A stretch of 25,385 nucleotides of DNA from positions 1-25,385 of the IMG/VR virus record IMGVR_UViG_3300016722_000154; one strand, written 5' to 3'. Origin of the DNA: a virus (Duplodnaviria > Caudoviricetes). A program made the position numbers and the translations under genes. The notes under the pieces were generated by a model, which saw only the letters and a program-made list of their open reading frames with translations, was not told the origin of the DNA and did not search any database. This document shows positions 2,524 to 24,806 of this stretch, one piece after another; positions within the stretch are counted from its first letter, which is position 1; the number at the start of each line of letters is the position of its first letter.

Positions 2524-4326
2524 CTACTGATATGCTGTTTCTACGTTGGCAATAACCCTCATAAACATGTCGCGCAGATAGGCTTCGATCTGCCGTTCGT
2601 CCATTTTTTGTAACGTTGTATTCTGGGTGTTAATTCCACCCTTCACAAAACTGTCGATATTGATATTAATGGTTTTTATCTGCTTTGCACTCCCGGTTAT
2701 CTTATTGGTAAGATCGTCCCCGGTAGGCGTAGCGGGGTTTTTATTTTTATCATTAGTATTAGCTTGGGTTGCAGCCCAAGGATTTCCGCGCGCTTCTAAA
2801 ATTCGTTGTCTTATATCTTTAAATGCTTCTAAATTACCCCACGCCCATTCTTTAACCTCAGTACCCGATTCGGGATGTTTATAGATAGCCATCATTTTGC
2901 GATACTTATCATCTAACTCACCCCACGTTTTATCCCATTCCGATTTTGACATTTTATCAGCACGATCAATCCTGGAATCCCAGTATCCCACTTCCTTACC
3001 CTTTACCCATTCTGATCTTGACAGTTCTTTATCTTTCCAATGATTAATATTCATCCAGTGGTATGTGGTTTTATCTATATTTCCGGTTAATCTCCCGTAT
3101 ATCAAAACTAAATTTTGGAGATGTTCTGTTAATGGAAGGATAAGATTCTTTTTAATAACCATCCATGTTGGCATCGCTGTTTCTCCAAGCCTTACCATAG
3201 ATGTCCTAAGCCTGTTATTTATCATTTCGTTAACATAGCCAAGGTTGTTTTCGGCATTTTCCTTGATTTTTGAAAAATCCACTTCTACGTTATCAAACTG
3301 TTTGAGGGTTGCCAGTGTTTGGCCGCTTCTGTCGGAAGCTATTGCTAACAATGCGTTCAGCCCTTCACTTCCCTGGAATTGCCCCCGGATTTTGGAAAGG
3401 TCGTAGTCTGTTTTAGCCGTCAGTAGCTTATGGTTTAATTCGGTAACTATCTGGCTAAACTGTTTCATCTTTCCCGCTTTATCAAACACTCCGTTGCCAC
3501 CCAGTACATCCTTAAATGTTTTTTGAATCTGAAGTCTTGAGAGATCGGTAAACAGGGATTTTGTTAGGGTCGCCGCCTCTTCCGGGCTCTTTGTTTTTAC
3601 GGTAAATAAAGCAAAGGCCTGGTTTGCGCTGTTGTAGTCCTGTGCAGCCCCTTTAGCAGCTCCGGCGAAGTCGCTTTGTACCTTAGCCAGCTGATCGTAG
3701 GTAACCAGAGCGGTACTCATTGTTTTGTGGCTGCTTTCCAGATATTTATTGACATCGTTTGTTGAAAATCCAAAGTTTGCCATTGCTTTTGCCGCTCCAC
3801 GGATGGTTTCGTTAAAATCTGACTTAACATACTGGCTGAATTTCCCCACCTTTCCAACAATCGCTTCCGCAGCACTGCCATACTTCCCGGTTAATGACTG
3901 AACGTCGAACACTGCCCCCGCCGTTTTATCAGGGTCAAATCCTTTTTTGAAAGAGAAATCAAGAATTTCATTTTTTAAATCAGATATTTGCCGTTTGCTT
4001 TTGTCAAGGTTTAAGTTTTGTATATTTAAAAACGAGTTATCGAATTGCTCCGCCGCGGCAATCGCCTTTTTATATCCGATTCCCAAGGCAATCACCCCCG
4101 ATATAAGCCTTACATAAGGGTTGCCTAATAATTCCATCGCTCTTCCAAAACCTGGGATTTCATCCTTCATTGCCTGGAATGCTTTTATGTGCGATAATTT
4201 AAGGTCTGCCAGTCGGTTTTTTATATCACGCACATTACTATTTACAACTTCTTTAGCTTTTGTAAATCCGGTTTTTAACCTTTCCTTCATTTCAAGAATT
4301 AACTGTACTTTTGCTTGTCCGTCCAT
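2524..4326 (-). CDS. tail tape measure protein (600 aa)
   Basis: Long Ala/Lys-rich helical protein with TP901-like core ('GKMKQFSQIVTEL', 'GSEGLNAL') and C-terminal 'KTININIDSF'; ATG 4326 preferred over the ORF-track start at 4416. Confidence 0.85.
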   Translation of the reverse strand: MDGQAKVQLILEMKERLKTGFTKAKEVVNSNVRDIKNRLADLKLSHIKAFQAMKDEIPGFGRAMELLGNPYVRLISGVIALGIGYKKAIAAAEQFDNSFLNIQNLNLDKSKRQISDLKNEILDFSFKKGFDPDKTAGAVFDVQSLTGKYGSAAEAIVGKVGKFSQYVKSDFNETIRGAAKAMANFGFSTNDVNKYLESSHKTMSTALVTYDQLAKVQSDFAGAAKGAAQDYNSANQAFALFTVKTKSPEEAATLTKSLFTDLSRLQIQKTFKDVLGGNGVFDKAGKMKQFSQIVTELNHKLLTAKTDYDLSKIRGQFQGSEGLNALLAIASDRSGQTLATLKQFDNVEVDFSKIKENAENNLGYVNEMINNRLRTSMVRLGETAMPTWMVIKKNLILPLTEHLQNLVLIYGRLTGNIDKTTYHWMNINHWKDKELSRSEWVKGKEVGYWDSRIDRADKMSKSEWDKTWGELDDKYRKMMAIYKHPESGTEVKEWAWGNLEAFKDIRQRILEARGNPWAATQANTNDKNKNPATPTGDDLTNKITGSAKQIKTININIDSFVKGGINTQNTTLQKMDERQIEAYLRDMFMRVIANVETAYQ

Positions 4327-4349
4327 AATTTTAAAAATATTTGTGTGTT

Positions 4350-4383
4350 TTTGTCGAAAACGTGAATTTTGATTGTATCTTTG
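4350..4383 (+). promoter_or_regulatory. consensus Bacteroidota promoter antisense to the head operon
   Basis: TTTG (4350-4353), 22-nt spacer, TATCTTTG (4376-4383). Confidence 0.7.
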
Positions 4384-4387
4384 CATC

Positions 4388-4455
4388 AGATCGGGATGCG
4401 TCCCGAACTTCCCCAAACGGCTAACCGGTTTTTCCTGTTAGCCGTTTGGCTTTTA
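4388..4455 (+). ncRNA. candidate ~65-nt two-hairpin small RNA converging on the MuF-toxin stop codon
   Basis: Follows the promoter; hairpin TCGGGA-TGCG-TCCCGA (4391-4406); 13-bp hairpin 4413-4425/4437-4449 followed by CTTTT; no ORF. Confidence 0.55.
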
Positions 4456-5784
4456 TGGTAATCCTAATAATTTTCTTGTGTATTTCATTGGTACTCCTGT
4501 TTTATTTATTATCCATACCTGATTGATATTAGCCGATTGCTTCATCTGCCCGCGCACAGCATCAATAATATCATTTTCATTCATTTTATCGGTAAGATGT
4601 AAAACGGCAACACCCGCCTGATTTTCCGCGCTTCTTATCCTGTTATGAATAGCTGTTTTTGTTGGTTTCGGGTGCTTTATTTCTGCAATAATTTTATTAT
4701 CAATCAAAGCATCTGGATTTTTACCCTTTATAAAGTCTTTTGTCCCATAAATTTTTTCACGGATTTTATCATCATTCTTACCAAGTTCCGGCAATAACTT
4801 TACGTTATATCCTGCGTCGGCAAGCAACTTAGCCGTAGCTACATTATTTGCCATTTCCTCTATGCCGTGTAACAGGTGAACTTGTACAGTTTTGCCATTA
4901 TCGGCTTTGTATACCGTATTATAAGCGGCATCGGCTGGTAAGGTCTGTAAGGATTGTCTTAACACATCAGCCGGTACCCCATCGTAATACGGATGTCCTG
5001 CCGGGAAAATCAGTCCTGATTGAGCCAGATTAGTACGGAACATGGGCGGGATAGGGACGTCCGGAATTTCTTTTGTTTCTTTGGCGTTGCTGTTTGGTAA
5101 CTGGTTTGCGCTGCACCGGCAACCCCAGCCGTTGGGCGGGAAATGTGTAGCCCAGAAAGCATCATCCATTTTCTTTATTATACCTTCCAGGGCACGGTGA
5201 GTATCGCGCACGCGGGCATCACCCACGGTGCTATACTGAAGAAAGGGCATAATCTTTTTGTTAGCCTCAAACTCACTCCAGCGGGCGGCCATAGTAGCTG
5301 AACCAACAGCCTGGTTGTATTCCGTCCGTAACCAGGAAGAGTTATATTTTCCGTTAATTGCACCGGCGGCATCTTTAAAGTCGCCAAAACTCCTGAGTTT
5401 ACCGTTTTCATCCTTTAAAGCCAGCGTCATGTCCCGCATCTGCTGATAATTCTTAGCGGCACTAAAGTTCCATACATCGCGGGTTAACCGGGTAAGCATT
5501 GCCGCATCCGGGGTATCCCAATCTATCTGCAGGAAATTTTTGCCGTAACCATCAAAAACCTGGCTTTGCAGAACAGAGCCTACCAGCTTCAGTATTCCGG
5601 CATCGGTAAGCCCGGCGGTACCATTCCATATTTCATCCAGTACCCTTTCCAGTTCCGTGGTAAGGTTCTGGGTAAAAGAAGCGGGTAAGTCAGCCTCAGC
5701 GGTGGGACGTAATCCACCACAGCAGGGACATGGCTCATATAGTTGTTGGGGGGCGGCTGTGGCCGTTGGGCCGTCCCCTATTGA
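4453..5784 (-). CDS. MuF (SPP1 gp7-like) minor head protein with C-terminal PD-(D/E)xK CdiA-like nuclease domain; probably expressed as a -1 frameshift fusion to portal
   Basis: MuF motifs 'WLRTEYN', 'YSTVGDARVRDTH', 'FPPNGWGCRC'; C-terminus 'KNPDALIDNKIIAEIKHP...SAENQA'; frame is open upstream to about 5862, first ATG only at 5499. Confidence 0.85.
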   Translation of the reverse strand, partial: SIGDGPTATAAPQQLYEPCPCCGGLRPTAEADLPASFTQNLTTELERVLDEIWNGTAGLTDAGILKLVGSVLQSQVFDGYGKNFLQIDWDTPDAAMLTRLTRDVWNFSAAKNYQQMRDMTLALKDENGKLRSFGDFKDAAGAINGKYNSSWLRTEYNQAVGSATMAARWSEFEANKKIMPFLQYSTVGDARVRDTHRALEGIIKKMDDAFWATHFPPNGWGCRCSANQLPNSNAKETKEIPDVPIPPMFRTNLAQSGLIFPAGHPYYDGVPADVLRQSLQTLPADAAYNTVYKADNGKTVQVHLLHGIEEMANNVATAKLLADAGYNVKLLPELGKNDDKIREKIYGTKDFIKGKNPDALIDNKIIAEIKHPKPTKTAIHNRIRSAENQAGVAVLHLTDKMNENDIIDAVRGQMKQSANINQVWIINKTGVPMKYTRKLLGLP

Positions 5785-5790
5785 AAATTT
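5750..5790 (-). other. candidate -1 programmed ribosomal frameshift signal (portal to MuF)
   Basis: In-frame heptamer A AAT TTT (5790-5784), 5-nt spacer, stem GGGG(A)CGGC (5778-5770) / GCCGCCCC (5757-5750); the -1 frame is the MuF frame. Confidence 0.75.
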
Positions 5791-7040
5791 GCCGAAAAAG
5801 CGGCCTTTGGCTTCCCCGGTTCCGGGGTGGTTGGCGTTTTCTTCTTTCCTATAATTGGAAAGTTAAAGCGATTACTCACCCAGTCCGGATCAATTTCATA
5901 AGATTGTAACGCCTCGTTTACAATTTTCCAGTGATCGCTTATACCGATGCTTTCCGTGCGGTCAAACGCAAATACGCTGGTATCTGTAAACTTAAAACCC
6001 CAATTCCGTAGCAGCGGGATAAGTTTTCCATTAACGAAAAACTCTATCATCCGGCGGTCGCTTTCGGCTATCTTTTCATCAAGGGTGCGTTCATGAACTT
6101 CGCTTTGGCTCCGGGAACTCCCGTTGTCGATCACCATGGTGCCACCAAGGATATTTTTACTAATCTCGTCGTTAGCCAGGTTGATTTGTTCAAGAAAAAC
6201 CTTATGAGGGTCTCCCTTTTGAACTGAGTCGTGTATGGTGATTTTAGTTCCTTCGGGTAATATTGCCTGTGCCGCCTGCCCAAGGTTTTTCATTCCCTTC
6301 TGGATTTTGTCTATTGTCAACTTATCCGTCCGGGTTGTTTCGGCAGATATCAGAGGAATGCCAAATCTTTCAGCAAAATCAGCCCATACCTGCTGGGCGT
6401 TACGCTTCCAGATTAATTGAGGAATTATATTATTCAATATCCCGTATTTACTACTGACGCTTTTTAGTTCAATTACGTTTTTTGCAAAAGCGGGGTCTGT
6501 GTAGTTAACTCCTTTGTTGCCTGCCACCTCAAAGTAAATCATTCCGGTTTGTGGCACACAGTTCCGGCGTGGGATAAGCTGCCAGGTGTTGGTGGTTGGA
6601 TCGACAAGCTCCATGACAGTATAATAACGAAAAACACTATCCAGGAGATACTCCATCATGTTATACCACCATTCCGTTTGAAAATAGGCGGTTTGCTCAG
6701 GAATTTCCGTCCCGGATTTAGCGTCCTTAACCATTGATCGCCGCGACATCGTGGCTGCTTTCCGTATATTGATAACGGCAGCCAGGTGTCCATCCGTTAA
6801 AAGATTATCATACAAATCTTGCTGTAGGTACCAACGCGGATCGTCTATATCATCCGTGGCGTCCATAGATTCACGCCACTTTTTTATATCCGACCGGGTT
6901 TTGTCGGTAAATTCTTTAACTAACTGAACCATTATTCCACTTGCGCCCTGGCCAGAAGCTAATGAAACCGGATGTTTTTCCGTTTTGTAGAGACCCCACA
7001 GGTAACTTTTTGACTGTTGTATATTATTTATAATATCCAT
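5778..7040 (-). CDS. portal protein (Mu gp29 / DUF935-like)
   Basis: 'DGHLAAVINIRK', 'WADFAERFGIP', 'NDEISKNILGGT', 'GSSRSQSEVHER'; lies between terminase and MuF. Confidence 0.9.
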   Translation of the reverse strand: MDIINNIQQSKSYLWGLYKTEKHPVSLASGQGASGIMVQLVKEFTDKTRSDIKKWRESMDATDDIDDPRWYLQQDLYDNLLTDGHLAAVINIRKAATMSRRSMVKDAKSGTEIPEQTAYFQTEWWYNMMEYLLDSVFRYYTVMELVDPTTNTWQLIPRRNCVPQTGMIYFEVAGNKGVNYTDPAFAKNVIELKSVSSKYGILNNIIPQLIWKRNAQQVWADFAERFGIPLISAETTRTDKLTIDKIQKGMKNLGQAAQAILPEGTKITIHDSVQKGDPHKVFLEQINLANDEISKNILGGTMVIDNGSSRSQSEVHERTLDEKIAESDRRMIEFFVNGKLIPLLRNWGFKFTDTSVFAFDRTESIGISDHWKIVNEALQSYEIDPDWVSNRFNFPIIGKKKTPTTPEPGKPKAAFSANFQ

Positions 7041-7043
7041 GTC

Positions 7044-7259
7044 TTATTTTGTTTTATAGAGTGCAACTTCTTGTAACTTTACCCAGTCTATTGTTATCAT
7101 CTTCTGTTTTCTCATTTCTTTGAGTTGATGAGCTGAAAATACCTTTAGTTTCTTTTGCCAGCGAATAACATAATATTGCCGTTTTGTGGCTTTGTGGAGT
7201 GTGTTGGCTTTGTGCTTTGCGTAGCGAAAGCGGATTGTAAATAATAAGAATTTTATCAT
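7044..7259 (-). CDS. small basic hypothetical phage protein
   Basis: Fills the operon gap between the gp36-like gene and portal; ATG at 7259. Confidence 0.6.
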   Translation of the reverse strand: MIKFLLFTIRFRYAKHKANTLHKATKRQYYVIRWQKKLKVFSAHQLKEMRKQKMITIDWVKLQEVALYKTK

Positions 7260-7284
7260 CGTTGAAATAGTATTTAAAAAGTTA

Positions 7285-7707
7285 TTAAAACCGGTTGCTT
7301 TCTTTTGGTTGTTCGCTCCAGATACGTATGTCGCTTTCTTCCTCTCCACTTTCGTTTGTGAGGGCTGGCAGGTCGGCATTCTGTCCTTTTTGTACAGCAG
7401 TTAACCATTTGAGTGCGTCCCCATATCGCTCTTCGCGGGTTTTTGGGATATTGTTAGGGCCTTCCTTACTCCAGAGGTGGTATAAAGCAAGGTCGATTGT
7501 AATCATTACGATATACCGATCTCTATTATCTACATCTCCGGCAGGAGTAAATATTTTATTACAATCGTATCGCCCAGCAATATGGTTTCTGATCTGGGCG
7601 ATTGCCATACCTTCCGCCTGAAGTAAATTAGTTCCTTCGGGGTCGATTATCTTCGCTATTTCGGAGCGAATTTGAACGTTGTAATCCGAATCTTTTAAAA
7701 ATCTCAT
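7285..7707 (-). CDS. head-tail connector (Mu gp36 / DUF1320-like)
   Basis: 'GRYDCNKIF', 'IDLALYHL', 'ERYGDALKWL..VQKG...DLP'; ATG 7707 abuts the terminase stop. Confidence 0.85.
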   Translation of the reverse strand: MRFLKDSDYNVQIRSEIAKIIDPEGTNLLQAEGMAIAQIRNHIAGRYDCNKIFTPAGDVDNRDRYIVMITIDLALYHLWSKEGPNNIPKTREERYGDALKWLTAVQKGQNADLPALTNESGEEESDIRIWSEQPKESNRF

Positions 7708-14839: not shown

Positions 14840-15184
14840 ATGAAAAAAGAAACAGTAGAATTACCGGCAGGAGTAACTTCGGAAATGGTCGCCGCATGGA
14901 AAGAACGTTATGGTGAAAACAAAGTGAAGCAGGCTCTGCTTCCATTAACGGAAGACTGCAACGATTATTTGTCTGTAATCGTCCGGGCTCCCGGTCGGAA
15001 AGAAGCCTCGGAATTTGAAAAGTGGATCGATAAAAATCCCGACAAAGCAAAGGAAATTCTTGTCAATACCTGTCTTTTAACGAATAAAGATGAAGTGAAG
15101 ACAAACGAATACCTGTTCTTTGGTGCCGCTGATGCTATCATGAACCTCTTACAAGTACCGAAAGCGATCATAAAAAACTTATAG
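14840..15184 (+). CDS. tail assembly chaperone (G-like)
   Basis: After tube; 'AAWKERYG'; ends in slippery A AAA AAC TTA TAG. Confidence 0.8.
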   Translation: MKKETVELPAGVTSEMVAAWKERYGENKVKQALLPLTEDCNDYLSVIVRAPGRKEASEFEKWIDKNPDKAKEILVNTCLLTNKDEVKTNEYLFFGAADAIMNLLQVPKAIIKNL

Positions 15185-15402
15185 AGGGCTATCCCTCTAT
15201 TGACGTAGTCGAGGATGAGGATAGCCTGACGAGACAGGATGCTAATTTTATAAGACGCGGGGATGCGATGATAAGTTATTTTCTGAACATCCCCTTTCCT
15301 GAAAATTTAGACGATGACACCTGGATGGAAAAGTTCCGGCAGGTTGAATGGCTTTCAGAAATGGGAATATTAGGAATTAAAAAGAAAAATGCCTCAAGTT
15401 AA
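14840..15402 (+). CDS. tail assembly chaperone frameshift product (GT-like, ~187 aa)
   Basis: -1 frame open from 15178 to TAA 15400-15402 (LIEGYPSIDVVEDED...PENLDDDTWMEKFRQVEWL...), filling the gap to the next gene. Confidence 0.75.
15172..15200 (+). other. -1 programmed ribosomal frameshift signal
   Basis: A AAA AAC (15172-15178) followed by perfect hairpin ATAGAGGG-CTAT-CCCTCTAT (15181-15200). Confidence 0.8.
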
Positions 15403-23999: not shown

Positions 24000-24806
24000 A
24001 TGAAAACAGAAACAATAAAAATGAAGACGCCTATCAGTTATTATGGTGGCAAGCAAACTTTATGCAGCCGTATAGCTGCTTTAATTCCAGAACACAGTCT
24101 TTACTGTGAACCCTTTTTCGGCGGCGGCGCTGTGTTTTTTGTCAAGCCTAAAGAGGTTAGTAAAGTAGAAGTGATTAACGATACCAATAAGGAGTTGATT
24201 AACTTCTATAAAGTAGTTCAGAATGATTTTATAAGCCTTGAAAAAGAGGTGAGGATAACGCTTCACTCAAGAGATTTACACCGTAAAGCAAGCGTGATTT
24301 ATAACAATCCGGACATGTTCAGCGAAGTAAAAAGAGCTTGGGCGGTGTGGGTATTAGCCACCCAAAGCTTCGCTTCGATAGTTGATGGCTCCTGGGGTTA
24401 TGATATCAACACCCGGTGCACCTCAAAGAAGATTATGAATAAGAGGGATAGTTTTACCGAAGAGTACGCTATACGCCTTCAGGATGTACAAATTGAGTGT
24501 ACAGACGCTATCCGGATTATCACCAGCCGTGATACTGAGCAATCCTTCTTTTACTGCGATCCACCGTATTTTCAGGCCAATATGGGGCACTATGCCGGGT
24601 ACACCTTAAAAGATTTTGAAACGCTATTGCAATGCCTTTTAAATATCAAAGGAAAATTCATCTTATCATCTTATCCATCGCCCATTTTAGAAGAGTATGT
24701 AAAGAAAGGGGATTGGAGCCAAAAAACATTTGAGATGAGCGTGAGTGTTGCTAAGGTAAACCGGCCAAAAAAGACAGAGGTGTTAACCGCAAACTTTTCG
24801 ATTTAA
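24000..24806 (+). CDS. DNA adenine methyltransferase (D12/Dam-like family)
   Basis: 'PISYYGGKQ', motif I 'EPFFGGGAV', 'VINDTN', catalytic 'DPPY'; alternative start 24021. Confidence 0.92.
   Translation: MKTETIKMKTPISYYGGKQTLCSRIAALIPEHSLYCEPFFGGGAVFFVKPKEVSKVEVINDTNKELINFYKVVQNDFISLEKEVRITLHSRDLHRKASVIYNNPDMFSEVKRAWAVWVLATQSFASIVDGSWGYDINTRCTSKKIMNKRDSFTEEYAIRLQDVQIECTDAIRIITSRDTEQSFFYCDPPYFQANMGHYAGYTLKDFETLLQCLLNIKGKFILSSYPSPILEEYVKKGDWSQKTFEMSVSVAKVNRPKKTEVLTANFSI

Follow-up and report, generated by a model that had tools for sequence, protein, structure and literature searches.

A probable −1 frameshift site at the portal–MuF junction of Mu-like Bacteroidota phages, with apparently interchangeable polarity

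Introduction

The bacterial dnaX gene supplies both the short and the long subunit of one oligomer, and parts of a recoding review (PMC5009743) describe how this is achieved by a −1 slip to an immediate stop in Escherichia coli, by what appears to be the reversed arrangement in some bacteria, and by transcriptional slippage on a 9-base run in Thermus, with reversal being easy at an efficiency near 50%. The same parts of that review present the G and GT proteins of phage lambda as non-virion chaperones at a ratio of 30:1, and name T3, T7, A2, A118, A500, and PSA as phages in which a fraction of a capsid or tail subunit is extended by frameshifting. Among head genes, a muf gene directly downstream of the portal gene and with a variable C-terminal domain characterizes the MuF polymorphic toxins, according to portions of PMC5576092 that also describe SPP1 gp7 as binding the portal in one to two copies, and fusions of portal, MuF, and PBECR have already been published (parts of PMC5512222). 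The subject of the present work is the junction between a Mu-type portal gene and a MuF gene in the IMG/VR record IMGVR_UViG_3300016722_000154 (Caudoviricetes), a stretch of 25,385 nucleotides (nt) that is referred to as a whole as the window.

A first-pass annotation of this stretch proposed that a −1 programmed ribosomal frameshift (PRF) makes a portal-MuF-nuclease chain, and the comparative evidence from related loci strongly supports that proposal. Judging from these comparisons, it is very likely that ribosomes slip −1 at the portal/MuF overlap, which would yield a 420-amino-acid (aa) portal together with a predicted 862-aa portal-linker-MuF-nuclease chain. Sequence comparison establishes that the phase is kept, that the heptamer is locked and the stem covaries, that MuF has no usable start, that the two parts are collinear with natural fusions, and that both polarities occur.

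The slippery site and its conservation

In the window, the 3′ end of the portal gene reads GCA AAT TTT CAA TAG, and the heptamer pointed out in the first-pass annotation is present there in X_XXY_YYZ phase (Table 1). From 5862 to 4453 the −1 frame is free of stops; it coincides with the frame of MuF, and its translation matches the domains Phage_Mu_F (E 7e-19) and CdiA_C (E 4e-11); the predicted transframe product comprises 419 + 443 = 862 aa, or ~97 kDa. Readthrough of the stop was rejected as an explanation, the frame 0 beyond the TAG being an unrelated 62-aa stretch, and an Rfam scan of positions 4200–7300 returned a single chance match (E about 1).

Related junctions were collected in a first set of 222 records (221 loci and the window; 179 split, 26 fused in frame, 10 running off a contig end, and 7 without a MuF match) and in a larger set of 301 records (184 split, 93 fused, and 24 incomplete); lineage counts derive from pattern-seeded scans, and one locus (L089), a mis-called internal stop, was left out of the junction folding and the start-codon analysis. 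Alignment of these junctions, which had been suggested at the outset as a check, returned a conserved heptamer, stem, and −1 phase, with MuF lying in the −1 frame and overlapping the portal stop in 172 of the 179 split loci (the window and its contig L149 are both counted here). The perfect heptamers, found at 105 of the 120 distinct split junctions, are AAATTTT (80), TTTTTTC (12), AAATTTC (12), and GGGTTTT (1), and 6 more junctions retain T_TTY, with XXX varying among AAA, TTT, and GGG. The Asn codon in the heptamer is AAT in 92 of 92 cases, as compared with 877 of 2092 (42%) elsewhere in the same genes, and the third base preceding AAT is A in 65 of 65 cases, as compared with 2374 of 10757 (22%) elsewhere. 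At the protein level, the portal C-terminus is NF(Q/R)* in 88 of 120 homologs.

The stimulatory structure

The GC-rich stem that had been described after a 5-nt spacer is confirmed, with a length of 8–9 bp, and covaries in relatives, though it is weak by itself in the window. Over 111 junctions, the 40 nt located 3′ of the stop fold at a mean of −16.1 kcal/mol, versus −5.0 to −8.5 kcal/mol at six other offsets, and the stem has z < −1.5 in 97 of them. In 30 junctions of equal loop length, 94.6% of the cells of stem 1 are paired (35–56% in slid controls), 6 of its 8 pairs show two-sided change, and the two-sided changes amount to 53 versus 15.8 after shuffling. The stimulator is probably an H-type pseudoknot, which is suggested by stronger pairing between the loop and the downstream sequence of one and the same junction than between permuted partners (12.4 versus 10.86 ± 0.23; 0/2000, 89 junctions); a control window gave 238/2000, which is not significant. 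A second stem proposed at 5720–5699 does fold in the window, but it is unconserved over the 111 junctions (at +45, mean −8.5 kcal/mol and median z −0.64) and was set aside. Upstream, a Shine–Dalgarno (SD)-like GGAG at −14 occurs in just 18 of 102 regions and is missing from the window. Of the features by which −1 PRF is recognized, this junction has an in-phase heptamer within an open reading frame (ORF) overlap, conservation at the nucleotide level, and a covarying 3′ stimulator 5–9 nt downstream.

The MuF start and the transframe segment

As the first-pass annotation had noted, the frame that is −1 to the portal and belongs to MuF contains no ATG, GTG, or TTG for 95 codons, and the first such codon past the slip site is ATG 5499; in relatives, the first ATG lies at a median of 91 codons past the slip. 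AlphaFold modelling of the −1 frame (48 sequences; predicted template modelling score 0.87) places most of this segment within the folded MuF domain; in the model, residues 1–29 are disordered, residues 31–100 have a predicted local distance difference test score of about 88–98, two helices precede Met96, and Met96 itself (ATG 5499) falls inside the third helix. The start-less segment, CxxC region included, aligns with residues 428–507 of natural in-frame fusions, which follow the portal domain, at a probability of 100%. Moreover, PHROG matches to MuF begin upstream of ATG 5499, where the GC content is 70% versus 10–45% at 11 other starts of the window. The CxxC motif (CPCC) itself lies early in the MuF frame (5740–5718, minus strand), and 59 of 108 relatives have a CxxC or CxC within 70 aa; MuF also has invariant CRC cysteines, which with the early CxxC form a possible zinc site.

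These observations bear on the alternative of an independently made MuF, whose translation would re-initiate at the ATA that overlaps the stop of the portal gene, at a later CTG or ATA, or at ATG 5499, with the stem only tuning coupling or mRNA stability. The overlapping ATA exists in the window (5781–5779), but the corresponding codon is mostly GTA or TTA in the 111 junctions (GTA 56, TTA 31, CTA 12, ATA 11, CTG 1), and re-initiation there was rejected on account of this lack of conservation; a start at 5499 would delete two confidently folded helices. There are 11 relatives in which MuF has its own ATG, and these loci lack the heptamer and the stem; some relatives offer an early GTG or TTG. 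Separate synthesis further leaves unexplained the locked synonymous bases and the presence of heptamer and stem inside in-frame fusions, and it is considered quite improbable. In mass spectrometry of the hankyphage (Table S6 of PMC12135933), MuF is represented by 3 peptides (9% coverage) in the 250–85 kDa slice, which cannot show a fusion because small proteins, namely Gam and the adaptor, occur in the same slice.

Reversed polarity in in-frame fusions

In-frame portal-MuF fusions occur at 93 of 301 loci and are represented by 144 long proteins, and a slip signal is present at 61 of their 64 distinct junctions. T_TTT_AA with a stem accounts for 20 of these junctions (17 as A_AAT_TTT), at which the −1 frame meets TAA immediately, G_GGA_AAR with a stem for 7, and runs of A9–11 for 30; three further junctions have A_AAT_TTT_AA (L124), A10 (L224), and A11 (L236), and another has T_TTT_TTC with a stem outside the scanned zone (L013). 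Elsewhere, the T_TTT_AA-type heptamer with a stem occurs 0 times in 46,510 other codons, none of 12 other in-frame AAATTTT sites in the same ORFs has such a stem, and a run of A9 or more is found once in 143 kb of the same ORFs. Runs of this length are present at 34 of 40 fused junctions without heptamer and stem, versus 0 of 141 junctions that have them. In a distant T_TTT_TTC/GCCCC-GGGGC type, which likewise shows both polarities, MuF lies in the −1 frame in the hankyphage (L014), L016, and L303 and in frame 0 in L302 and two Porphyromonas phages.

The A9–11 runs probably act by transcriptional slippage. Such stem-less runs in a related lineage are a known substrate of that process (parts of PMC5009743), and RNA polymerase might likewise slip in place of the ribosome at the A3T4 run of the window; this is very improbable, given that the run is merely T4 and that X_XXY_YYZ phase and a covarying stem at 5–6 nt are ribosomal signatures. 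Within the A-run class, a single A separates L008:3650–3661 (Flavobacterium phage fF4, A9, split) from L286:3680–3700 (a prophage 98% identical to it, A10, fused), which may reflect phase variation or an error in the homopolymer. It is conceivable in the A-run class, from this pair and from the existence of in-frame fusions, that an assembly indel or a recent mutation has broken a plain in-frame fusion. Such an origin is scarcely credible for the window locus and is refuted there, because the same break is conserved at the same base in more than 100 distinct junctions, down to ~40% portal identity; runs X1 and X2, which may be from the source sample, and X5, from another study, also have contigs that cross the junction without gaps. 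The assembly error that the first-pass annotation asked to have checked is excluded.

Polarity appears to travel with the MuF cassette, because 11 changes are needed on the portal tree versus 4 on the MuF tree (both from FastTree, unrooted, and with warnings of long branches at the base; loci of neither class not counted) and because near-identical portals have opposite polarity: the portals of L106 and L115 are 92% identical and their MuF proteins 34%, and those of L202 and L095 are 84% and 33% identical, respectively. The tip travels in the same way: CdiA_C-like tails are of the forward heptamer type in 83 of 88 cases and PBECR2-like tails of the fused type in 67 of 79, a link between tip and polarity that may be plain shared descent. 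The conserved feature seems to be the pair of products and not the direction of the shift.

Proposed mechanism and its weighing

Tandem slippage of tRNA-Asn and tRNA-Phe on A_AAU_UUU would be stimulated by the stem, probably an H-type pseudoknot, and the short and long chains would co-assemble in one portal ring, from which MuF and its tip may be ejected with the DNA, by analogy with SPP1 gp7. In the sister cassette, the fusion is encoded in frame 0 and the same heptamer is followed by AA, which would let a −1 slip reach TAA and release a short portal; other lineages have G_GGA_AAR, T_TTT_TTC, or A9–11 runs. H_HHU_UUY and V_VVA_AAR are among the most efficient −1 motifs in E. coli (parts of PMC4066793).

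The annotated idea that a minority of subunits is extended, which fixes the stoichiometry, cannot be taken as given. Because close relatives with portals 84–92% identical to those of split types encode the fusion in frame 0 with a slip to stop, either the slippage efficiency would be high, as in dnaX, or the proportion of short to long chains would differ greatly between cassettes. If efficiency is low, opposite proportions would be expected in forward and reversed phages; if it is near 50%, reversal would be easy, as in dnaX. On balance, we lean towards a mixed portal ring whose short and effector-bearing subunits come from a repeatedly rewired recoding switch of the dnaX kind (forward −1, reverse −1, and A-run), in which the polarity of each exchangeable cassette sets its own effector dose per virion and the annotated portal-MuF fusions also make plain portal.

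Several observations weigh against frameshifting at this junction. The window's own stem is weak (z −1.55; 13 of 200 shuffles are equally good), stem 2 is only 3 bp there, and 3 further in-frame heptamers lie within the portal gene. Taken alone, the window therefore does not exceed what chance would give, and the significance of the site comes only from the relatives. As for the relatives, the structure used in the covariation test was taken from the same sequences, and its 30 rows of equal loop length were picked from a set of 37 plus the window. An ATG, GTG, or TTG occurs within 10 codons in 16 of 108 relatives, and in the 11 loci with a separate MuF its ATG lies near the portal stop. The signal is retained in L074, L152, L188, and L219 though their MuF frame is broken downstream, L004 is without MuF, 3 of the 64 fused junctions have no signal (L257, L266, and L278), and the motif efficiencies are E. 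coli data and not Bacteroidota data. L004 and L218 have neither MuF nor an NFx* ending, and a tape-measure-like gene directly follows their portal, so some relatives dispense with MuF.

The variable tip and the region behind MuF

The MuF domain lies downstream of the portal with a variable C-terminal domain, the arrangement of MuF polymorphic toxins, and the tips in the set are CdiA_C-like, PBECR2, LPD3, and glutamine deamidase. In the window, the sole PDB match of the tip in Foldseek at E ≤ 0.001 is 4g6v, a CdiA-CT (E 8e-5); a sequence search of the tip against PDB gave no match. A PD-x-(D/E)xK-like pattern is found by regular expression in the window and 35 of 59 relatives. The tip resembles a CdiA-CT tRNase and is a predicted nuclease; by this fold it is a putative toxin, as the first-pass annotation had termed it.

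Behind MuF, the gap between its stop and the tape-measure ATG (4326) is ~125 nt, which is too small for a sense-strand immunity gene, and no antisense ORF of at least 40 aa occurs in 84 of 84 CdiA_C-type loci (small sense-strand ORFs of the relatives were outside this survey). The gap contains a convergent TAnnTTTG, which we take to be the consensus of the Bacteroidota −7 element. This motif is found within 200 nt past the MuF stop in 181 of 195 loci, versus 29.6 expected, and the element together with a structured stretch of ~70–100 nt generally lies within 130 nt past that stop. The stretch in the window is a candidate antisense RNA of ~70 nt, in the place expected of an immunity gene. In CdiA_C-type units, a GGGATGCGTCCC-like hairpin is often present ahead of a terminator-like stem, and PBECR2-type units are longer. 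In 4 of the 6 loci with non-nuclease tips (the L043 cluster of 4 loci and L014/L016; unassigned or glutamine deamidase), this convergent promoter is instead followed by a small antisense ORF that likely encodes an immunity protein, and the hankyphage has an annotated minus-strand gene of that kind.

Genomic context

Gene content places the window in a Bacteroidota-type Mu-like myophage. Its minus strand carries the terminase, Mu gp36 adaptor, portal, MuF, tape measure, and neck genes, and its plus strand the Clp protease, capsid, sheath, and tail genes; the Pfam scan took in 13 ORFs of the 25 kb. Compared with the core gene list for Winoviridae and Mu-like phages (parts of PMC8776804), the core head genes found are Portal_Mu, MuF, gp36 adaptor, and gpG, along with Clp protease and sheath. 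Portal identity to Winoviridae isolates, Porphyromonas phages, and the hankyphage is 24–37%. The tape measure gene (2524–4326, minus strand) stands directly after MuF in the head operon, with the tail tube and chaperone genes ~11 kb away on the opposite strand, and an ORF at 24000–24806 (plus strand) resembles a Dam-type adenine methyltransferase, its DPPY motif having been read by eye.

Table 1. Positions of the portal–MuF features in the window
Feature	Position	Strand	Basis
Mu-type portal gene, 420 aa, C-terminal ...SANFQ*	5778..7040	−	Pfam Portal_Mu PF06074, E 3e-63; phrog_113
Slippery heptamer A_AAT_TTT, one sense codon upstream of the portal stop	5784..5790	−	Perfect X_XXY_YYZ at the same position in 105/120 distinct split junctions
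Stem 1 of the predicted stimulator (5778–5770 with 5757–5749), 5-nt spacer, one A.C mismatch	5749..5778	−	Folding and covariation
Likely pseudoknot stem 2, loop GGC (5764–5762) with GCC (5734–5732)	5732..5764	−	Loop/downstream pairing test
Start-less N-terminal part of MuF, 95 codons: linker, CxxC motif, two helices, and beginning of a third	5500..5784	−	AlphaFold; alignment to fusions
MuF frame (−1): MuF domain and C-terminal CdiA_C / PD-(D/E)xK-like nuclease fold	4453..5784	−	Pfam, AlphaFold, Foldseek
Convergent TAnnTTTG (4376–4383), then two-hairpin stretch ending in a T-run	4376..4455	+	Folding z −5; motif count

Discussion

No report of a portal frameshift was found in the literature, where supplements or subscription journals could hold an annotation. 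The word "frameshift" does not occur in the portions covered of PMC12135933, PMC5576092, PMC5512222, PMC11699363, PMC3482391, PMC8776804, and bioRxiv 10.64898/2026.09.22.753630, it occurs once, about spanins, in those of PMC10367356, and "portal" is absent from the first 300,000 of the 449,034 characters of the recoding review PMC5009743. The junction would therefore seem to be a widespread recoding site of a known kind in a new place, apparently unpublished, with dnaX-like interchangeable wiring.

If this is true, the portal would join the phage proteins made by recoding, and covalent linkage would offer a means of loading MuF with its effector at the portal vertex, as opposed to the non-covalent binding known for SPP1 gp7. 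Mis-started MuF annotations would be predicted in many Bacteroidota prophages, the gut hankyphage included, and a hidden short form in "portal" genes of ~850 aa. The pairs of opposite polarity with near-identical portals would serve as a natural experiment on the number of effector-bearing subunits that a portal ring requires or can tolerate, and the junctions provide a large covarying set of Bacteroidota frameshift signals.

As in T3, T7, A2, A118, A500, and PSA, a fraction of a structural subunit would be extended by frameshifting, but in those phages the extended subunit is a major capsid or tail protein and the extension is mostly Ig-like. As in gpG/gpGT of lambda, a late gene has a heptamer close to its 3′ end that leads to a C-terminally extended form; here, in contrast, it is the portal that would be extended, by an entire head protein with an enzyme-like domain. 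The window also has a G/GT-type site of its own (15172–15198, plus strand; heptamer 15172–15178), in which A_AAA_AAC, one codon, TAG, a hairpin, and an open −1 frame follow the layout of the portal site. The MuF toxins and the published portal-MuF-PBECR fusions share the position of MuF beside the portal and the variable tip; they differ in that no immunity ORF follows here and that plain fusions are predicted to also give a short portal. Bacterial dnaX (tau/gamma) is a further parallel: all three dnaX arrangements appear at the portal–MuF junction, although the product here is a phage virion protein, no upstream SD-like stimulator is conserved, and the polarity moves with an exchangeable MuF-effector cassette.

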